A stretch of 64,000 nucleotides of DNA from Acidobacteriota bacterium (GTDB taxonomy: Bacteria; Acidobacteriota; UBA6911; RPQK01; CBDBID01), in assembly GCA_965205565.1 (NCBI GenBank), contig CBDBID010000040.1:111451-175450 (forward strand), given 5' to 3'. The notes below the pieces were generated by a model, which did no database searches, was not told where the DNA came from, and saw only the letters and a list, made by a program, of their open reading frames with translations. Position numbers and translations under genes: made by a program. Below, piece by piece: positions 10,282 through 47,764 of the stretch. Numbering within the stretch: the first letter of the stretch is position 1; every line of letters begins with the position of its first letter.

Positions 10282-11734
10282 CTAGCAGTCCGTGGTGGAA
10301 GTACGTTTTCTGAGCTCAGGTGGTACCCACCGGTGGAAGCAGCGAAGGGGTCGCTGAGGTGGGTTTTTCGGGCCAAGCAGCCGGAATCAGTCCGAACAGG
10401 CCCTTAAGACGCTTGAACAGCGACAAAATCAGTAGCATTAGGGCGCAAATCCGCCCCTGCAGACCCCGCGGCGTTCCCACACCCAGGCTCTGACGCATCA
10501 GCATCCCCAGATTGAAGGCGCTCACCTGGATCAGCAGTCGCTTCAACACATTCTCATGTCCCCGTACATGCAGCCGTCTCATCCCTCCGCTCCCGTACAG
10601 ATGCGCACAGGGTCGCTCCAGCTGCTCTCCTCGTTGCTGCAGCAGCCGCTGCCCTCGCTCTCCCCGGATGCGCCGCCGATTCGCATACACCGCTTCCTGC
10701 CCCTGCCGGTCTCCTCGCCAGCGTCGCTTCCCTCGCCTCGGTTCGCTCACATAGCTGCGCAGTCCCACCGCATCCAGGTCCACCATCCGCTGCGTGCTGT
10801 GATACCCCTTGTCGGCCACCACCTCTTCGATGCCTCGTCCCTCCGGCAGCGCTTGTTCCACCTTCTCGACCGCTTCCGTCAGGGTCTTCACCATGGTCTG
10901 CGTGTCCCCTTGATCGGCTCCCTGTACCGTCACCGAGACAATCGCTCCGGTCTCCAGATCCACTGCATGCTCCGCCTTGTGCGCCAGGTGCGTCCGCCCG
11001 TCCTTCATTCTGGTAATCCGCGCATCCGCATCATGCGGGTGCTTCCAAACCCGGTTCGATCCTTTGCCCGTGCGCTTGCGGTCCAGTTTGGCCAGATCTT
11101 CCCGTCGCGGCGTCTCAATCCCGGAGGCTTTCGCCAGCTCCATCAAAAACTCTTCATACCCCTGCTCGCTGTCCCGGCGCACGATGCTGCGCAGCGCTGC
11201 ATTCGCTTCCAGCGTAGTGGCATCGATGCCGATCGTCTTGCCCCGCAGCAGGCCGCTCGCCCCGATCCGCTTCAGTACCCAGTCAAAGACTGCTTCGTGG
11301 GTAGCCACATCGATCAGTCGCCGGGTTCGGGAGATCGTGGAGTGATCAGACGGCGACTCGCTCAGTTTCAATCCCAGAAACTCTCGCAGTGCCAGAGAAT
11401 CAGCTGCTCTCCAGGCTATTCCTCGTTCCGATCCGATCCCTTCGAAATACCCCACCAGCAGCAGCCGAAAGTACACTCCCGGAGCCAGGCTCGGTCGCCC
11501 CATCTTGTCTGCATAGAACTTCGCACACAGTCCCTCCACGAAGTCGTCAAAACCGTGTTCGTTGAAAAGGCCATTCAGTCTTTCGTAGAAGGGATGGCCG
11601 GCGGTGCGGGGCAGCTCACTGGTGGCGACCCACAGGTCTTCTTGCTGTCGACGTTTCTTTTTCCCCATTGCCATGGGGTCAGTCTAGTGTCGCTGTGTGA
11701 CCCCTTATCCTCGACTTTCACCACGGGCTGCTAG
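10282..11734 (-). mobile_element. IS5/IS1182-family insertion sequence, copy A (1453 bp)
   Basis: Imperfect 20-bp IRs CTAGCAGTCCGTGGTGGAAG / CTTTCACCACGGGCTGCTAG; second copy at 41235-42686 with >99% identity. Confidence 0.8.
10316..11674 (-). CDS. IS5/IS1182-family transposase (452 aa, DUF772 N-terminal domain + DDE)
   Basis: FYADKMGRPSLAPGVYFRLLLVGYFEGIGSERGIAWRAADSL is the InsH-N/DUF772 signature; ADKGYHS DDE region. Confidence 0.8.
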   Translation of the reverse strand: MAMGKKKRRQQEDLWVATSELPRTAGHPFYERLNGLFNEHGFDDFVEGLCAKFYADKMGRPSLAPGVYFRLLLVGYFEGIGSERGIAWRAADSLALREFLGLKLSESPSDHSTISRTRRLIDVATHEAVFDWVLKRIGASGLLRGKTIGIDATTLEANAALRSIVRRDSEQGYEEFLMELAKASGIETPRREDLAKLDRKRTGKGSNRVWKHPHDADARITRMKDGRTHLAHKAEHAVDLETGAIVSVTVQGADQGDTQTMVKTLTEAVEKVEQALPEGRGIEEVVADKGYHSTQRMVDLDAVGLRSYVSEPRRGKRRWRGDRQGQEAVYANRRRIRGERGQRLLQQRGEQLERPCAHLYGSGGMRRLHVRGHENVLKRLLIQVSAFNLGMLMRQSLGVGTPRGLQGRICALMLLILSLFKRLKGLFGLIPAAWPEKPTSATPSLLPPVGTT

Positions 11735-11853
11735 GACTCATACCCCTCGTTACATCCTTCTCTGATAATCACCAGACTCTCTATGGCACTCTGGCTTCTG
11801 TATGTGGGTCTCTTCTGGGCTTTGTTATCACTTCTGTATCGATAATATTTTCG

Positions 11854-41059: not shown

Positions 41060-41234
41060 TGATATATCGCCGCATTTATAAGCCTAACCATTTCTTGATT
41101 GCCATATCTTCCAGAAAGTTGCTCGCCTTCATCGATAAGAAAAGTCGGATGGCTTTGTTCATTGAGCCTAAATAAGACAGCAGTTGTAATTCCTGCGCTC
41201 ATCTATTCAAATCAGGTCTTGTACAAACTAGCTC

Positions 41235-42686
41235 TAGCAGTCCGTGGTGGAAGTACGTTTTCTGAGCTCAGGTGGTACCCACCGGTGGAAGCAGCGAAGG
41301 GGTCGCTGAGGTGGGTTTTTCGGGCCAAGCAGCCGGAATCAGTCCGAACAGGACCTTAAGACGCTTGAACAGCGACAAAATCAGTAGCATTAGGGCGCAA
41401 ATCCGCCCCTGCAGACCCCGCGGCGTTCCCACACCCAGGCTCTGACGCATCAGCATCCCCAGATTGAAGGCGCTCACCTGGATCAGCAGTCGCTTCAACA
41501 CATTCTCATGTCCCCGTACATGCAGCCGTCTCATCCCTCCGCTCCCGTACAGATGCGCACAGGGTCGCTCCAGCTGCTCTCCTCGTTGCTGCAGCAGCCG
41601 CTGCCCTCGCTCTCCCCGGATGCGCCGCCGATTCGCATACACCGCTTCCTGCCCCTGCCGGTCTCCTCGCCAGCGTCGCTTCCCTCGCCTCGGTTCGCTC
41701 ACATAGCTGCGCAGTCCCACCGCATCCAGGTCCACCATCCGCTGCGTGCTGTGATACCCCTTGTCGGCCACCACCTCTTCGATGCCTCGTCCCTCCGGCA
41801 GCGCTTGTTCCACCTTCTCGACCGCTTCCGTCAGGGTCTTCACCATGGTCTGCGTGTCCCCTTGATCGGCTCCCTGTACCGTCACCGAGACAATCGCTCC
41901 GGTCTCCAGATCCACTGCATGCTCCGCCTTGTGCGCCAGGTGCGTCCGCCCGTCCTTCATTCTGGTAATCCGCGCATCCGCATCATGCGGGTGCTTCCAA
42001 ACCCGGTTCGATCCTTTGCCCGTGCGCTTGCGGTCCAGTTTGGCCAGATCTTCCCGTCGCGGCGTCTCAATCCCGGAGGCTTTCGCCAGCTCCATCAAAA
42101 ACTCTTCATACCCCTGCTCGCTGTCCCCGCGCACGATGCTGCGCAGCGCTGCATTCGCTTCCAGCGTAGTGGCATCGATGCCGATCGTCTTGCCCCGCAG
42201 CAGGCCGCTCGCCCCGATCCGCTTCAGTACCCAGTCAAAGACTGCTTCGTGGGTAGCCACATCGATCAGTCGTCGGGTTCGGGAGATCGTGGAGTGATCA
42301 GACGGCGACTCGCTCACTTTCAATCCCAGAAACTCTCGCAGTCCCAGAGAATCAGCTGCTCTCCAGGCAATTCCTCGTTCCGATCCGATCCCTTCGAAAT
42401 ACCCCACCAGCAGCAGCCGAAAGTACACTCCCGGAGCCAGGCTCGGTCGCCCCATCTTGTCTGCATAGAACTTCGCACACAGTCCCTCCACGAAGTCGTC
42501 AAAGCCGTGTTCGTTGAAAAGGCCATTCAGTCTTTCGTAGAAGGGATGGCCGGCGGTGTGGGGCAGCTCACTGGTGGCGACCCACAGGTCTTCTTGCTGT
42601 CGACGTTTCTTTTTCCCCATTGCCATGGGGTCAGTCTAGTGTCGCTGTGTGACCCCTTATCCTCGACTTTCACCACGGGCTGCTAG
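41235..42686 (-). mobile_element. IS5/IS1182-family insertion sequence, copy B (1452 bp)
   Basis: Same IRs as copy A; 4 aa differences in the transposase; same orientation as copy A (direct repeats ~29.5 kb apart). Confidence 0.8.
41268..42626 (-). CDS. IS5/IS1182-family transposase (452 aa)
   Basis: Near-identical to 10316-11674. Confidence 0.8.
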   Translation of the reverse strand: MAMGKKKRRQQEDLWVATSELPHTAGHPFYERLNGLFNEHGFDDFVEGLCAKFYADKMGRPSLAPGVYFRLLLVGYFEGIGSERGIAWRAADSLGLREFLGLKVSESPSDHSTISRTRRLIDVATHEAVFDWVLKRIGASGLLRGKTIGIDATTLEANAALRSIVRGDSEQGYEEFLMELAKASGIETPRREDLAKLDRKRTGKGSNRVWKHPHDADARITRMKDGRTHLAHKAEHAVDLETGAIVSVTVQGADQGDTQTMVKTLTEAVEKVEQALPEGRGIEEVVADKGYHSTQRMVDLDAVGLRSYVSEPRRGKRRWRGDRQGQEAVYANRRRIRGERGQRLLQQRGEQLERPCAHLYGSGGMRRLHVRGHENVLKRLLIQVSAFNLGMLMRQSLGVGTPRGLQGRICALMLLILSLFKRLKVLFGLIPAAWPEKPTSATPSLLPPVGTT

Positions 42687-43073
42687 GAGAGTAAGAAGGT
42701 TTGACTTTCCACACCCCGAGGTAGGACTAATAACGGTATCTCTGTCGTCGTCAGCCTTCTTGATTGGGGACAAATCTATCAATTTCTTCCCGGAACCAAG
42801 TAACCACTACCCAAAGAGCCACCAGTGTCGAGCCGGTAACTGTTCCATATACATATACGAGCCAAACCATTCACTGATGTTCTTTCAAAACGAGAGGAGC
42901 CTTCGACAGGATTCGGATAGGGGGTAACAGGGGGGACTGCGTCATCGTGCTTAAGGGCTTTGCGCTTCAGGCATGCTTAATAGCTGGCGTCCACCAGTCG
43001 AGCAGGCGCATCCACGCCACCCTCTTTTAGAGCGTCTATTGCTCCGAGAACGCAGTATCTCGCGACCTAAATT

Positions 43074-43099
43074 GGGTAACTACTTACTTGACATACCAA
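43074..43099. repeat. left terminal inverted repeat of the IS1595-family unit
   Basis: GGGTAACTACTTACTTGACATACCAA; reverse complement present at 46829-46854. Confidence 0.7.
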
Positions 43100-43125
43100 A
43101 ATAACCCTGCTATTATTGTCTCATC

Positions 43126-44079
43126 ATGAGGTATCCAAAGTCATTAGTTGAGGCTGTCCGGTTCTTTTCAGACTTTGAGCGTTGCCGCCAATACATGGTG
43201 AAACTTCGCTGGCCCGACGGCAAGGTGACTTGCCCACGGTGCGGCGGGGATCGAGTCAAGTGGCTGGCAAAGGCTCGGGTATGGAAGTGCTACGCAAAGC
43301 ACAAGCAGCCCACCTTCACGCTCAAGACGGGAACGATCTTCGAGGAATCTCCTATCGGTCTGGACAAGTGGACTACGGCAATCTGGCTGGTCGCAAATTG
43401 CAAAAACGGGATTTCTTCTCTTGAGATGGCCCGCCATCTGGGAGTGACCCAGAAGACGGCATGGTTCATGAATCACCGCATCCGCAAGGCCATGCAGGAC
43501 GGGTCGTTCGTCAAGCTGGGCGGAGAGATCGAAGTCGATGAGACATTCATCGGTGGAAAGGCTCGCAATATGCACGTCTCCGCAAGGAAGCGCCGGATCA
43601 CTGGCACTGGCGGGAAGGACAAAACCGCCGTGCTGGGAATGCTGGAACGAAACGGAAGGGTCCGAACTTCCGTGATAGAGGATCGTAAGAGGCGGACCAT
43701 CCATCCCCAGGTCCGTGACCAGGTGGAGGCCGGTTCCGCACTCTATTCCGATGAGTTACTTTCATACGAAGGGCTGGCATCCGATTACGCCCACCAGGTC
43801 ATCAATCACGCAGTCGAATACGTCAGGGGTGAGGTTCATACCAATGGCATGGAGAACTACTGGTCGCTGCTCAAGCGCGGCCTCAATGGAACCTATGTCT
43901 CGGTCGAGCCGTTTCACCTGTTCCGTTACCTAGCAGAGCAAGCCTTCCGGTTCAACAACCGCGAGGCTGAGGGTGGAGACTTCGAGCGTTTCTCGATTGC
44001 GATGGCACAGGCAGTTGGTCGCAGGCTTACTTATGACGAACTGTCGGGGAGGGCACCTAGTCAAGCGACGGTTAACTAA
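43126..44079 (+). CDS. IS1595-family transposase (317 aa)
   Basis: Zinc ribbon CPRCGGDRVKWLAKARVWKC and DDE region EVDETFIGGKARNMH; diverged from the 12115-13062 copy. Confidence 0.75.
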   Translation: MRYPKSLVEAVRFFSDFERCRQYMVKLRWPDGKVTCPRCGGDRVKWLAKARVWKCYAKHKQPTFTLKTGTIFEESPIGLDKWTTAIWLVANCKNGISSLEMARHLGVTQKTAWFMNHRIRKAMQDGSFVKLGGEIEVDETFIGGKARNMHVSARKRRITGTGGKDKTAVLGMLERNGRVRTSVIEDRKRRTIHPQVRDQVEAGSALYSDELLSYEGLASDYAHQVINHAVEYVRGEVHTNGMENYWSLLKRGLNGTYVSVEPFHLFRYLAEQAFRFNNREAEGGDFERFSIAMAQAVGRRLTYDELSGRAPSQATVN

Positions 44080-44338
44080 GAAGGAGTCCGAGAGGCAGGG
44101 TCGCGGGAAGCGCCGCGACCGCTAAAGATTGATTTCATCACTGTTTGGAATCTTCTGAACGCCTCCGGCCCTTCGATCATGTTCAGCTCACTTGCCGATT
44201 TCTTGGCCTTCTGCTGAGAAGATGAGCGACTGGTACTCGCCTTAGCTTCTCTTTGCCGTGGTGGTCTTCCCAAGCGATCCTCCTCTCGAAGCAACTTTCC
44301 CCAAGAAAAGTGCATCTTACACTTTTTCAGGGAGGTTT

Positions 44339-45154
44339 TCAATCATGGGTACCGCTTTCGCAACCAAAGACCTTGGAATCAAACTCGCCAATGATCTCGG
44401 AGACACGTGTCCAGGTTTTCCAGAGAAGTTGTACAAGGTTCCATCTAACCCCGGAGACAAGGTGGAACTTCTCAAACCCTACCGAGAAGCAAGGATATGC
44501 CTTTATCTCCTCGTCCGCTCGGCCAACGGGGAACGTTCCAAAAATCACCTCATCTTCTTTCAGCAACGCGTTCCCGTCCACGTGGAACAGCGGTGTGCTC
44601 TTGTTCCCTGTGTGTGCGGCCAATGTGCCGAACACAATAAGCGTTGTGGGGATGATTCTATGCTTGTCGGTGTTGTGGAGTTCTCTGAGAACCCAGAGCA
44701 TATCATCGTGCGGGGCACGGGGGATTCGTTCGTAAGGCTGTTCCCTCTCTATGAGAGATGCTTGGAGCGGGGATACACCTTCTATCATTCCGCCCGATCT
44801 GGATCTATACCCGCTCCTGGTTTTGAAGATGGGAAACTGGAGTCTTCCCTCTTTCTGGAGATCAAGACTGGGTTCGTTCAAAAGCACGATCTGATGAACG
44901 AGATGGTCAAGACTAGATCGCAAGTGGTACAGGGCCTCCCCGGCCAACAAGACGATATTGATATCGAGCTTGAAGCTGGGGTTTCTGACTGCGGTAAGCG
45001 TTACGGCGGGACTCCCTTTCTCCGATTTTTCATCGACTCGGATGGTGTATGGTTCACGCTTTGTAAGCTGGTCAAGGTGCCCATTCAGGTCGTTGATTAT
45101 GGTTTTGGCCCGTTCAATTTTGAGGCGGATTCCTTCTAGCGGATCAATCATCAC
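44339..45154 (-). CDS. hypothetical passenger protein (271 aa), co-operonic with the methyltransferase-HNH gene
   Basis: Its start overlaps the MTase stop (ATGA, 45151-45154); contains RELHNTDKHR (possible HEPN-like Rx4-6H); is fully overlapped by an antisense 293-aa ORF. Confidence 0.4.
   Translation of the reverse strand: MMIDPLEGIRLKIERAKTIINDLNGHLDQLTKREPYTIRVDEKSEKGSPAVTLTAVRNPSFKLDINIVLLAGEALYHLRSSLDHLVHQIVLLNEPSLDLQKEGRLQFPIFKTRSGYRSRSGGMIEGVSPLQASLIEREQPYERIPRAPHDDMLWVLRELHNTDKHRIIPTTLIVFGTLAAHTGNKSTPLFHVDGNALLKEDEVIFGTFPVGRADEEIKAYPCFSVGFEKFHLVSGVRWNLVQLLWKTWTRVSEIIGEFDSKVFGCESGTHD
44345..45139 (+). CDS. alternative antisense ORF (264 aa from the ATG at 44345) overlapping the 271-aa gene
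   Basis: GGGAGG RBS 8 nt upstream of the ATG; a stop-free stretch of ~290 codons in ~50% GC DNA is unexpected by chance. Confidence 0.25.
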   Translation: MGTAFATKDLGIKLANDLGDTCPGFPEKLYKVPSNPGDKVELLKPYREARICLYLLVRSANGERSKNHLIFFQQRVPVHVEQRCALVPCVCGQCAEHNKRCGDDSMLVGVVEFSENPEHIIVRGTGDSFVRLFPLYERCLERGYTFYHSARSGSIPAPGFEDGKLESSLFLEIKTGFVQKHDLMNEMVKTRSQVVQGLPGQQDDIDIELEAGVSDCGKRYGGTPFLRFFIDSDGVWFTLCKLVKVPIQVVDYGFGPFNFEADSF

Positions 45155-46801
45155 TCAAAAAGGCTCGGATTCATCTCGTGTTCCCGCCGGATCTTCCGCA
45201 TGATCGGGTTCTCTCTTTCTGAATCCGCCATGTAGCCCAGCTTCTTGTTCTGCCTTCTCAGTCCGATCAGCGTTAGCGTGTTGCTCTTGAGCCGGTTGCA
45301 CGGGCTGCAGAGCAGAATCCGGTTTGACAGTTCGTTCGAGCCGCCGTCCGAGCGCGGCTGCCGGTGGTCCAGTTCCAGGTAACGGGGATCGTCAAACTTC
45401 CGGTCGCACCCCTGGCACTTGGGGCCGTGCTCGATGATGAGCTGGTGAAACATCGCCGTCCGGCTGAGGGTGGATTCTCTCGGCTCGTGCTTGGAGTATT
45501 TCACCTTGAGGAATGGGGCCGCAATCTGTCCGTCATCGGTGCGCTTTGGGGTCCGCTTACGATAGTAAATCTTATCGAACGCAAGCTTGTCCCTAGCGTG
45601 TCCCTTCACCTCAAAATACTCTTCCCTGAATCTGTCCAGAACTACCTCATGCGCCCTGTCCCAAATGTCAATGCCTACCCATTGGCGATCAGCCAACTCA
45701 GCCGCAACGCAGGTAGTCGCACAGCCACAGAAGGGGTCAAGCACCATGCTTCCCTTCTTGGAGCTGGCTTGGTTGATTCGGTTGTAAAGGGTTAGTGGCT
45801 TCTGTGTTGCGTAGCCGGTGCTTTCATCTTTCCCGGCAGGTGCAATGTCGGTCCACAGATTGGGAACGGCTTGTTGCGGAATGCCTTGCAAATAGCGTTT
45901 GAGTCTCGGCTTTCCGTTGCGTGTCCAGTGTATTAACCCTACCTTGTCTAGTGCGTGGCACTTGCCGAGTTGGTCAAGTTTGCTGTAGCCGCTTCCCAAC
46001 AAGTCTTTTTCCCAATCTGGCAGTTTCGATATTTGCGGTGGCGCCCATGCTCTCCCGGCTGGCGGCGGCATGTCATTGAACGCCCTATAAGCCTCTTCGC
46101 TGCCCGCCTTGCCGCCGCTTAAATCAGTTGTTGTAAATCGTCCGCGCTCATCTTTTTGGGTGTAAAGAGCATCAATCTGATCTTCTGTCATGGGCGTATA
46201 GTCTCCCCTGAAAACGAACTTGCCGCTTTTCGGGTAGAACAGGATGCAATCCGTGATCGCTTCGTACTTGCGAATGGACAGCGGGTGTGCGTTGGTGCGT
46301 CTCCAAACAATCTCATTCTTGAAGCTCTTCCACCCGAATATCGCATCCATAGATCGCCTTGAGGTAGTGGCTGGCCGTGGGGTCGCAGTGGAGGTACAGC
46401 GAACCGGTAGGCTTTAACACGCGGTGCATTTCCAAGAGCCGCACGGCCATGAAACACAGAAAGGCTCCCATGTCTGACCCAACTTCCTCCCTGGACCGTT
46501 TCAGGTTCTTCTTGGTCTGTCTCATGTAGATCGCGTTAGCCGCGTCAATCACTTCCCAGACAGGAGGGAAATCGTCTTTGATCTTGTCCACCCAGTCTTG
46601 ATGCACGTCCCGATCCCAGGACCAGCGGTCCTGAAATCGTGCACCCTGTGCTAGGCTGTCGGGCGTGGCGTGAAAGTCTCGACCCTTGTTGAACGGTGGA
46701 TCGGTGGCGATGAGGTCCACGGTCCCGCTGTTCATGGCACGAAGGAACAACAGGTTATCGCCGTGGAATAGAGTGCGGTTTTTCCAGTTGGCTGTAGGCA
46801 T
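45151..46801 (-). CDS. N4/N6 DNA methyltransferase (PF01555 type) fused to a C-terminal HNH endonuclease domain; frameshift in the 46313-46350 overlap
   Basis: N-terminal part (46313-46801): DLIATDPPFN (motif IV). C-terminal part (45151-46350): DPFCGCATT (motif I) then ELDHRQPRSDGGSNELSNRILLCSPCNRLKS (HNH). The two ORFs overlap by 38 nt in different frames. Confidence 0.6.
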
Positions 46802-46828
46802 CCCAGAAGGGATGCTAGACTAGGTATG

Positions 46829-46854
46829 TTGGTATGTCAAGTAAGTAGTTACCC
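46829..46854. repeat. right terminal inverted repeat of the IS1595-family unit
   Basis: TTGGTATGTCAAGTAAGTAGTTACCC is the reverse complement of 43074-43099. Confidence 0.7.
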
Positions 46855-46930
46855 TAAATTGTCTAGACTTTCTGCTTCCTTTTTCACATCAAGCAAATAG
46901 GCTTCTACTTTATCGATGTCCAAGGTTTTC

Positions 46931-47764
46931 TTATCCAAAGTGGTGTTTCTTCTTCTCGTTAAGGAAAGCACCAATTTCCCCAGGTTGGTAAGGGACAACA
47001 GCGCCTATTGTCCCGGGGGCGTAACGAGAAAGACTGGCAGAGATTGTTTCGATTTCATGATCTTGAATTGGCGGATCAACATGGTATTTCTTGATTATGA
47101 GAAGACATTCGAAGATTGCCTCTCGACACAGACCTACCCTTCGAAGCGTTCCTCCGATACTAGTAAGTGTTGCGTTTCTCTTGCCCTTGGAGATCATCCC
47201 TTTCTCTCCGCTTATTACTTGTCTAGCGGGTGCTTCCAACAAAAGCGGGAGCAGGAAACCACGCAGAGGAGCTAATCGGACTTTATTAGCCCATTGATAT
47301 TTATTTCCATTAACATGAACTGAAGGCGGAACCACGACGTAGCCACCCTCACCACGGACGTCTATCCGCTCTCGGAATCCTGTCTTGTTGCGGATCAATT
47401 GGCCTTCGGGATACTCGAAAAACAGCTGTGATCCTCTTCCAGTTTTCTGTTCCAGGGTTTCGGGAAACCTACCCAGCTCGTTTTGTAATTCGTAGAAAGC
47501 TTCTTGTCGATCAATATCTAGAACCACTAAACCTGAAGCCTCTCCTGTAGGCATTCCGATGTTCGCTTTAGGCCATTGCTCCAACCAATCTTTTATGACT
47601 GATGCGTCACAAGTGGCGTCTTTTAACCCTCGGCTTGTCAGCGGGTGCTTTCCTGGACTTGAGCACTTCGCCTTTCCACAGGAACAGGCTCTGTCCTCAG
47701 GCCAGTAGAGAGGAAGAATTAGCTTTCCCTTCTTGGCGTATTTAAGTGCTTCCTTGAATGTCAT
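46931..47764 (-). CDS. bifunctional DNA primase/polymerase (Prim-Pol) N-terminal domain protein
   Basis: LPLYWPEDRACSCGKAKCSSPGKHPL...ANIGMPTGEASGLVVLDIDR matches the PF09250 pattern; typical of plasmids, phages and integrative elements. Confidence 0.55.
   Translation of the reverse strand: MTFKEALKYAKKGKLILPLYWPEDRACSCGKAKCSSPGKHPLTSRGLKDATCDASVIKDWLEQWPKANIGMPTGEASGLVVLDIDRQEAFYELQNELGRFPETLEQKTGRGSQLFFEYPEGQLIRNKTGFRERIDVRGEGGYVVVPPSVHVNGNKYQWANKVRLAPLRGFLLPLLLEAPARQVISGEKGMISKGKRNATLTSIGGTLRRVGLCREAIFECLLIIKKYHVDPPIQDHEIETISASLSRYAPGTIGAVVPYQPGEIGAFLNEKKKHHFG

Follow-up and report, generated by a model that had tools for sequence, protein, structure and literature searches.

Which strand carries the gene when two long open reading frames (ORFs) occupy the same DNA in opposite directions, or do both? 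We followed this question at one locus of a 64,000-nucleotide stretch from the genome of an Acidobacteriota bacterium (contig CBDBID010000040.1, positions 111,451 to 175,450), which we call the window. Here, a plus-strand ORF of 264 codons (ATG at 44345 to TAG at 45137-45139, with an alternative GTG at 44258) lies opposite a minus-strand ORF of 270 amino acids, which reads from an ATG at 45151, or less likely a GTG at 45154, to the TGA at 44341-44339. Both are located in a complete IS1595-family transposon of 3,779 bp (43075-46853). The minus ORF is certainly a real, ancient and strongly conserved protein-coding gene. For the plus ORF, the comparison of related transposons makes it probable that it is an antisense overlapping gene which is translated and maintained by selection, leaving the role of its product aside.

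The geometry of the pair determines what can be expected by chance. Codon boundaries are common to both frames, with position 2 facing position 2 and position 1 facing position 3, so that each plus codon is matched by its reverse complement among the minus codons; this relation is named -1 or sas13. The plus frame is open from 44246 onward and the plus ORF spans codons 5-270 of the minus gene, while the remaining two antisense frames contain 12 and 15 stops. A stop in the mirror frame is possible solely via a TTA, CTA or TCA codon in the sense frame. An earlier note on this DNA had described the two fully overlapping ORFs, a GGGAGG before the ATG at 44345 and an overlap of the minus start with the stop of a methyltransferase gene, all of which we found in place. 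The rarity that it attached to the overlap (three stops per 64 codons, corresponding to a chance of about 1e-6) was overstated: since stops arise only from the three sense codons, its null model was the wrong one and too harsh. These codons make up 1.44% of the codons in 10 Pfam-confirmed genes of the window, which gives a probability of about 0.02 for none in 265 codons. For four genes belonging to the element or the surrounding island, the share is 2.4% and the probability about 0.001. The pair nonetheless stands out: the other long genes of the window, Pfam-confirmed ones included, have 3-16 antisense stops each, and a nearly open mirror frame was present only in the minus gene and in one IS5-like transposase.

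Codon usage, third-position G+C content (GC3) and plain dN/dS, the checks which had been suggested to separate the two frames, did not tell them apart. The G+C content by codon position is symmetric between the frames, and the codon-usage log-likelihoods are similar (0.107 vs 0.074 bits per codon). Plain Nei-Gojobori dN/dS values for deep pairs differed slightly, with 0.38-0.53 for the minus and 0.53-0.66 for the plus frame.

In contrast to the composition of the frames, their homologues were informative. The minus product has 59 full-length homologues with identities down to 26%, and a profile built from 45 homologues retrieved at least 21,077 clusters (50% identity) at E<=1e-3 and 5,501 at E<=1e-30. 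In species-representative genomes, 300 relatives of this family were distributed over Acidobacteriota, Chloroflexota, Planctomycetota, Actinomycetota, Proteobacteria and other groups. The residues R79, L82, D83, F107, P108, Q139, P140, D163, K164 and H165 are invariant in the family alignment, and the OLGenie-type ratio dNN/dSN for the minus frame is 0.28-0.57 in the close clade of the window element. The ATG at 45151 is favoured as the start because the homologue in the related contig L083 begins with MIDPLEG. This start and the TGA stop (45153-45151) of the methylase-HNH gene upstream overlap as ATGA, an arrangement from which the minus gene is read as translationally coupled to the methylase gene.

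An AlphaFold2 model of the minus protein reached a pLDDT of 90.9 and a pTM of 0.88 and consists of a helical bundle with extra beta-sheet elements. The protein contains an R-x4-H motif (R79-S80-S81-L82-D83-H84), whose arginine was found in 123 of 124 genes and whose histidine in 107 of 124, with S80 almost invariant; N-T-D-K-H forms a second invariant motif. In the predicted structure, R-x4-H sits inside a 29-residue helix (65-93), about nine residues before the helix end. Searches of the minus product against Pfam, NCBIfam, PADLOC and PDB sequences gave no match. The same holds for Pfam at E<=1 across 45 family members, where no HEPN profile fits, for a PDB-sequence search with the family profile and for a Foldseek comparison of the model with the PDB. 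A look-up of the family clusters returned no names, tblastn against the plasmids of PLSDB found nothing, and a scan of JGI metagenomes gave no relative above 40% identity. Due to the missing profile and Foldseek matches and the mid-helix position of the motif, we use the label 'HEPN-like' and do not claim membership of the HEPN superfamily. The minus product is a HEPN-like helical bundle in its model, and a putative toxin.

To what extent the mirror frame remains open in this family depends on the genomic context. In the initial count, the mirror frame contained at least one stop in 56 of 78 distant homologues. Within the close clade it is open in all five intact sequences, which are 51-83% identical, and the sole stop-complement codon is the CTA of Leu5, found at the same place in every sequence. 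Moreover, none of 59 independent new Leu or Ser codon states in this clade is TTA, CTA or TCA (P=1.1e-4, calculated with the element's own codon usage). We then divided the family by its neighbours, defining a gene as IS1595-linked if it lies within 600 nt of an IS1595 transposase (n=34). Disregarding stops at sense codons up to 9, the mirror is open in 31 of these 34 genes. After reduction to less than 60% identity, the set comprised 30 IS1595-linked genes with a median pairwise identity of 26% and 94 non-linked genes; all 30 linked genes retain the invariant residues of the minus protein. The earlier note had reasoned that homologues with one frame repeatedly broken by stops would identify the spurious frame. 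This comparison returned opposite answers for the two groups: the mirror is broken in 59 of the 94 non-linked relatives (open in 35), which marks the minus frame as the conserved one, and lacks internal stops in 26 of the 30 diverged IS1595-linked genes.

The deficit of stops in the linked genes could be traced to single codons. With the codon choice of the non-linked genes, 66.9 stop-complement codons would be expected in the IS1595-linked set, and 8 were observed (Poisson 1e-19). Among the 59 sense codons, TTA (0.06x), TCA (0.13x) and CTA (0.15x) are the most depleted ones, and the next is CCA with 0.75x. GC3 is 0.62 in both sets, and the other NNA codons occur at 0.151 and 0.154. TTA, CTA and TCA trinucleotides out of frame have a normal frequency without depletion. 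As a control, 36 transposase genes of the same loci contain on average 4.0 of the three codons each and only three of them contain none. Furthermore, the mirror is open in 6.4% of flanking ORFs of similar length, compared with 23% for the whole family.

Several trivial causes of this pattern were rejected. Avoidance of the codons in the sense mRNA, or of their tRNAs, is ruled out by the undepleted other NNA and rare codons and by the normal out-of-frame frequency of TTA, CTA and TCA. A confounding effect of GC3 or codon bias is ruled out as well, because GC3 is equal in the two sets, dNN/dNS is hardly related to GC3 (rho 0.09) and GC3-matched comparisons hold. Shared ancestry does not account for the pattern either, given the reduction to less than 60% identity, the median identity of 26% and the fact that the IS1595-linked genes do not form a single clade. 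As the deficit is specific to codon, frame and gene, selection against nonsense in the mirror frame is the only explanation we can offer. Judged from codon choice, this shows that purifying selection clears mirror-frame stops in the IS1595-linked members by avoiding TTA, CTA and TCA in the sense frame.

Two further observations concern the distribution of open mirrors. Family members not seen beside a transposase have an open mirror in 35 of 94 cases, far above the control genes (6%). The three IS1595-adjacent genes with a broken mirror (L028, L055 and L092) all have the transposase divergent and upstream; the same arrangement occurs in L066 and L068, both of which have an open mirror frame. 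With a transposase that is co-directional upstream (15 genes) or convergent downstream (14 genes), the mirror is open in all. The divergent transposase neighbours may be unrelated insertions.

The signals at both ends of the plus ORF are conserved, too. The ATG (44345-44347) is preceded by GGGAGG (44330-44335) with a spacer of 9 nt, together forming a Shine-Dalgarno (SD)-like start signal at 44330-44347 on the plus strand. GGAGG or AAGGAG together with ATG (TTG in L084) is kept in the window and in six related contigs (L082, L083, L084, L165, L166 and L167), and the intergenic DNA around it is poorly conserved, unlike the SD and the ATG themselves. The C-terminus of the minus protein cannot explain this conservation, since the minus ORF ends about 20 nt earlier in L083, L165 and L167. 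At the other end, the TAG of the plus ORF (45137-45139) corresponds to the rare CTA for Leu5 in the PLxGI motif of the minus protein, and this CTA is kept in eight of eight close relatives. In distant elements, the mirror ORF usually opens at an ATG 2-14 codons past the sense stop, often behind a purine-rich SD-like run, and its end is at most a few codons away from the sense start. Many distant IS1595-linked genes have their sole antisense stop at sense codon 2-9. In L024, the ATG of the mirror ORF falls inside the right terminal repeat.

The ambiguity of the locus is also reflected in public annotation. The plus product is identical (100%) to the NCBI/ENA entry P0060, which is the only gene called here in L001, a contig 99.3% identical to the window (L001 6001-6795). 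The minus protein of the source genome is missing from the protein collection, where the best match is 82% identical. Gene callers picked the minus strand in some other contigs and the plus strand again in others, the latter in four relatives. Because the callers alternate between strands among related contigs, the products of either strand have entered the protein databases. The public annotation of the source genome is thus at fault for at least one strand: it names either the wrong one or only one of two.

We then asked whether the residues of the plus product are constrained in addition to the absence of stops, using our own implementation of the OLGenie-type dNN/dNS for sas13 after the method cited in PMC8850804. 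In the close clade, dNN/dNS of the plus frame is 0.30-0.59, compared with 0.52-0.83 for the transposase control. Among family pairs with 45-95% identity, the median was 0.45 if both mirrors were open (36 pairs) and 0.68 if both were broken (17 pairs; Mann-Whitney p=1e-5), a difference which survives GC3 matching but has to be read with the dependence among the pairs in mind, and with the baseline of this frame, which is well below 1. When the window is compared with L082, its nearest relative, the plus frame is more similar than the minus frame (88% vs 82% identity), with 21 vs 8 synonymous codon changes. This inverted pattern is explained in part by the mosaic history of the pair, in which a 400-bp stretch is 94-99% identical and the flanks 80-88%. 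A weak extra constraint is not surprising, because the genetic code keeps mirror residues in their class when the sense residue is kept. Taken together, the substitution ratios suggest a weak but detectable amino-acid constraint on the plus protein, for which the evidence as a whole is mixed.

How can these findings be combined? We favour the reading that the plus ORF is an antisense overlapping gene under selection to remain translatable. The conserved start and stop signals, the open mirror frame and the dNN/dNS values lend comparative support to the option of the earlier note that both ORFs are expressed, and the pair is known from sequence alone. Its option that one ORF is real and constrains the other is correct insofar as the minus ORF is the primary and ancient gene, but it does not cover the stop avoidance in IS1595-linked members. 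If the plus ORF is translated, its mRNA would most likely arise by read-through of transcription begun at the transposase's candidate promoter within the left terminal repeat, as the plus ORF lies on the transposase strand, 265 nt downstream of the transposase gene, and no terminator-like site was found between 43950 and 45350. A candidate promoter in the left repeat consists of TTGACA (43088-43093), a spacer of 17 nt and TATTAT (43111-43116) and is followed by the transposase ATG. Fusion of the plus ORF to the transposase is ruled out by stops in all plus frames of the spacer. A nonsense mutation in the plus ORF would then harm the element, and the benefit could lie in the plus protein as such or in the process of translating it. 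In the second case, ribosomes would guard a long transcript, antisense to the gene of the putative toxin, against termination by Rho; transposase expression would thereby be coupled to silencing of the HEPN-like gene, and the two expressions would be mutually exclusive.

A number of results weigh against this reading. The division into linked and non-linked genes was noticed post hoc, and the search for a plus-strand promoter beside the plus ORF gave none. The plus product has only five homologues, all with at least 54% identity, and its AlphaFold2 model, made from these five sequences only, has a pLDDT of 36. Plus-frame products from 26 diverse loci gave no Pfam match, and an alignment of 26 mirror products contained no conserved column except reflections of the sense motifs; in NCBIfam, PADLOC and PDB sequences, the plus product of the window likewise had no match. 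Third-base choice is scattered at invariant sense residues, and at equal sense identity the mirror-frame identity is only slightly higher in IS1595-linked than in non-linked genes (0.184 vs 0.173). Finally, in deep pairs of the close clade the minus gene has a dS of 0.6-0.8, which does not fall clearly under the 0.5-1.1 of the transposase.

A first alternative is a plain shadow ORF: the minus gene alone would be functional, the plus frame would be open because TTA, CTA and TCA are rare, and the annotation would have taken the wrong strand. With the -1 geometry, long mirror ORFs are much more probable than the earlier note assumed, the plus product is devoid of distant homologues, a fold and a Pfam match, the mirror is broken in most relatives not linked to IS1595, and residue conservation specific to the mirror is absent. 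This explanation fails, however, on the 7- to 16-fold deficit of the three codons in 30 genes with unchanged GC3 and normal adjacent transposases, and it leaves the conserved SD, ATG and TAG as well as the lower dNN/dNS of open lineages unexplained, so we regard it as quite unlikely. An explanation by translation only, with the peptide as a by-product, would accommodate the stop avoidance. Here, ribosomes would prevent Rho termination, and antisense RNA or convergent transcription would repress the HEPN-like gene; the RNA would start from an inward promoter in a terminal repeat and, in the window element, pass through the transposase gene. The strong selection on stops combined with an at most weak constraint on the mirror sequence fits this idea, as do the poor predicted fold of the plus product, the inward TTGACA -35 box in both terminal repeats, the missing terminator between transposase and plus ORF and the start of the L024 mirror ORF within a repeat. 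In contrast, the dNN/dNS difference between open and broken lineages and the better conserved plus frame in the comparison with L082 hint that residues matter, and both Rho dependence and toxicity of the HEPN-like protein are assumptions of this explanation. Overall, we consider translation without a useful product unlikely, too, if not to the same extent as the shadow ORF.

At the other extreme, the locus could be an ancient two-strand gene of IS1595 elements in several phyla, encoding the HEPN-like putative toxin together with a functional mirror partner. This partner might be an antisense-encoded protein which regulates or neutralises the sense protein, or a translated antisense transcript which toggles between 'transposase on' and 'accessory gene on'. 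We put this forward as a tentative idea that is rather unlikely. Very improbable, finally, is the converse view that the plus ORF is the sole real gene and the minus ORF an artefact, or that the region is non-coding, structured DNA or RNA, as the earlier note had considered. It is true that gene callers took the plus ORF in the source genome and in four relatives and that the codon-usage scores are similar. However, the evidence for the minus frame comprises thousands of diverged full-length homologues, invariant residues, a model with a pLDDT of 91, a dNN/dSN of 0.28-0.57 and a coupling to the methylase gene. A purely structural role of the region is thus rejected, as this frame encodes a deeply conserved protein. 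Among these explanations, we therefore retain a translated and selected plus ORF as the probable one.

The transposon which carries the pair is well defined. Its terminal inverted repeats (43075-43103 and 46825-46853) have a length of 29-30 nt and are 97% complementary, and an 8-bp target-site duplication, CTAAATTG, was read directly from the flanks at 43067-43074 and 46854-46861. The IS1595-type transposase (43126-44079, plus strand, 317 aa) contains the domains DDE_Tnp_IS1595 (PF12762, E=1.1e-42) and Zn_ribbon_IS1595 (PF12760, E=1.4e-8); it is convergent with the minus gene, and on the strand of the plus ORF it lies upstream. On the minus strand, a fusion of an N6/N4 DNA methylase and a C-terminal HNH nuclease (45151-46801; Pfam N6_N4_Mtase and HNH, PADLOC MTase_II) is followed by the HEPN-like gene and a small ORF in an operon-like row. 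A candidate inward promoter in the right repeat (TTGACA as the reverse complement of 46835-46840, 17 nt, TAGCAT as the reverse complement of 46812-46817) precedes the methylase ATG. In the window, the methylase-HNH gene is frameshifted into two ORFs (46801-46313 and 46350-45151) by a 1-nt insertion at 46352 (CCATAGATC against CCATGATC), while L001 contains an intact gene of 549 aa; the frameshift marks a fresh pseudogene or else is an error of the assembly.

The small ORF (44076-44342, minus strand, at most 88 codons) directly follows the minus gene and has a conserved C-terminal part (...ELNMIEGPEAFRRFQTVMKSIFSGRGASRDPASRTPS). It is conserved at the amino-acid level in L082, L083, L084, L165, L166 and L167, where the conserved part in the close clade reads ...MIEGPEAFxRFQxVMKSIxSGRGASRDP..., and it gave no Pfam match. 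Seven contigs of the convergent type (L048, L074, L102, L103, L130, L140 and L152) have an analogous small ORF after the HEPN-like gene, with the pattern ...EYxxFExALKKVLSVPxSxIKxKLxAEKRKR.... The product could be a partner of the HEPN-like protein, either an antitoxin or a regulator. A type II toxin-antitoxin module, which calls for a small antitoxin gene next door and a toxicity that can be shown, was considered as a candidate class.

The same gene layout as in the window was found in L082, L165 and L166 and partially in L083 and L167. Distant family genes have an IS1595 transposase next to them more often than any other neighbour (upstream in 10 of 66, downstream in 3 of 69), and in L024, L036, L048, L075, L103 and L140 the inverted repeats enclose just the transposase and the HEPN-like gene. 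The minus gene is a recurrent accessory gene of IS1595-type insertion sequences. An inward -35-like box, TTGAC(A/T) in the context TAC-TTGAC-A/T, is conserved in the repeats of the window element, L024, L036, L048, L075 and L140. In some repeat copies, TTG is replaced by ATG in one arm, which thereby provides an inward ORF with its start codon.

Beyond the transposon, the window has a G+C content of 0.46-0.53 between about 44000 and 54000, compared with 0.55-0.63 elsewhere. Within it lie the transposon, a Prim-Pol gene (46931-47764) and genes of the isochorismatase-like and Sel1-repeat types, as listed in the gene table of L001; it is probably an acquired island. Another element of the window, IS5/IS1182-like, is present in two copies with 8 mismatches (10282-11736 and 41234-42688). 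Its transposase (452 aa, minus strand; DUF772 and DDE_Tnp_1 in L001) is mirrored by a plus-strand ORF of 392 aa in the same -1 frame, and its first 411 codons contain no TTA, CTA or TCA (P of about 0.003 at 1.44% per codon).

The significance of the locus lies in the fact that long antisense overlapping genes of bacteria are still disputed and that the accepted examples are young and narrow in range. A mirror frame of 265 codons that is purged of stops at about 26% identity across phyla represents a deep and replicated natural experiment, and it permits a simple laboratory test because stops in one frame can be silent in the other. The analysis also exposes a very large family (at least 21,000 clusters at 50% identity) without a Pfam model which recurs as an IS1595 accessory gene, and it shows that gene callers flip strands between contigs. 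If the two-strand gene were true, it would be by far the most widely conserved prokaryotic antisense overlapping gene known and a new kind of transposon addiction or regulatory module.

Compared with known systems, the element itself has the features of the IS1595 family, with a DDE_Tnp_IS1595 transposase carrying an N-terminal zinc ribbon, inverted repeats, an 8-bp duplication and passenger genes. The passenger-gene subgroups ISNwi1+ and ISNha5 in ISfinder have 8-bp duplications as well. Our literature searches on passenger genes of IS1595, on ISNwi1 and on antisense ORFs within insertion sequences turned up no description of the HEPN-like gene or the mirror ORF. HEPN domains form a four-helix up-down bundle of two alpha-hairpins with an R-x4-6-H motif and a polar residue after the arginine; the motif is placed where helix 3 ends and the loop to helix 4 begins (Anantharaman et al., 2013, PMC3710099). 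Like the HEPN RNases and toxins HepT/MntA, RnlA/LsoA, AbiV and Csm6, the minus protein combines an R-polar-x3-H motif with a mobile, conflict-type locus. It differs from them in the missing profile match, the mid-helix motif of the model, the extra beta-sheet and the second motif, N-T-D-K-H.

The plus ORF shares the frame relation with shadow ORFs, which are commonest in the -1 frame, and equally the absence of independent mirror homologues and the hesitation of gene callers over the strand. Shadow ORFs decay at the rate of TTA, CTA and TCA usage, as can be seen in the neighbouring transposases and many non-linked family members, but the mirror described here does not. The closest parallels are olg1 (957 nt, in tle3) and olg2 (1536 nt, in PA1383) of Pseudomonas aeruginosa, two long -1 antisense overlapping genes (Kreitmeier et al., 2022, PMC8850804). 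Antisense overlapping genes have also been reported in Escherichia coli O157:H7, in a study that cites asp of HIV-1 (PMC9927249), and the published bacterial examples are young, overprinted and confined to a species or genus (PMC8850804). The genes olg1 and olg2 were verified by Ribo-seq and mass spectrometry, which sets them apart from a pair recognised in sequence data. In both cases, a long ORF is wholly embedded antisense in a bona fide mother gene with position 2 facing position 2, and stops are depleted beyond the prediction from codon usage, with an OLGenie-type dNN/dNS under that of controls. Unlike olg1 and olg2, the plus ORF belongs to a mobile element and covers the whole mother gene, and its open mirror is kept at a median identity of 26% in Acidobacteriota, Alphaproteobacteria, Actinomycetota, Chloroflexota, Gemmatimonadota and other groups.

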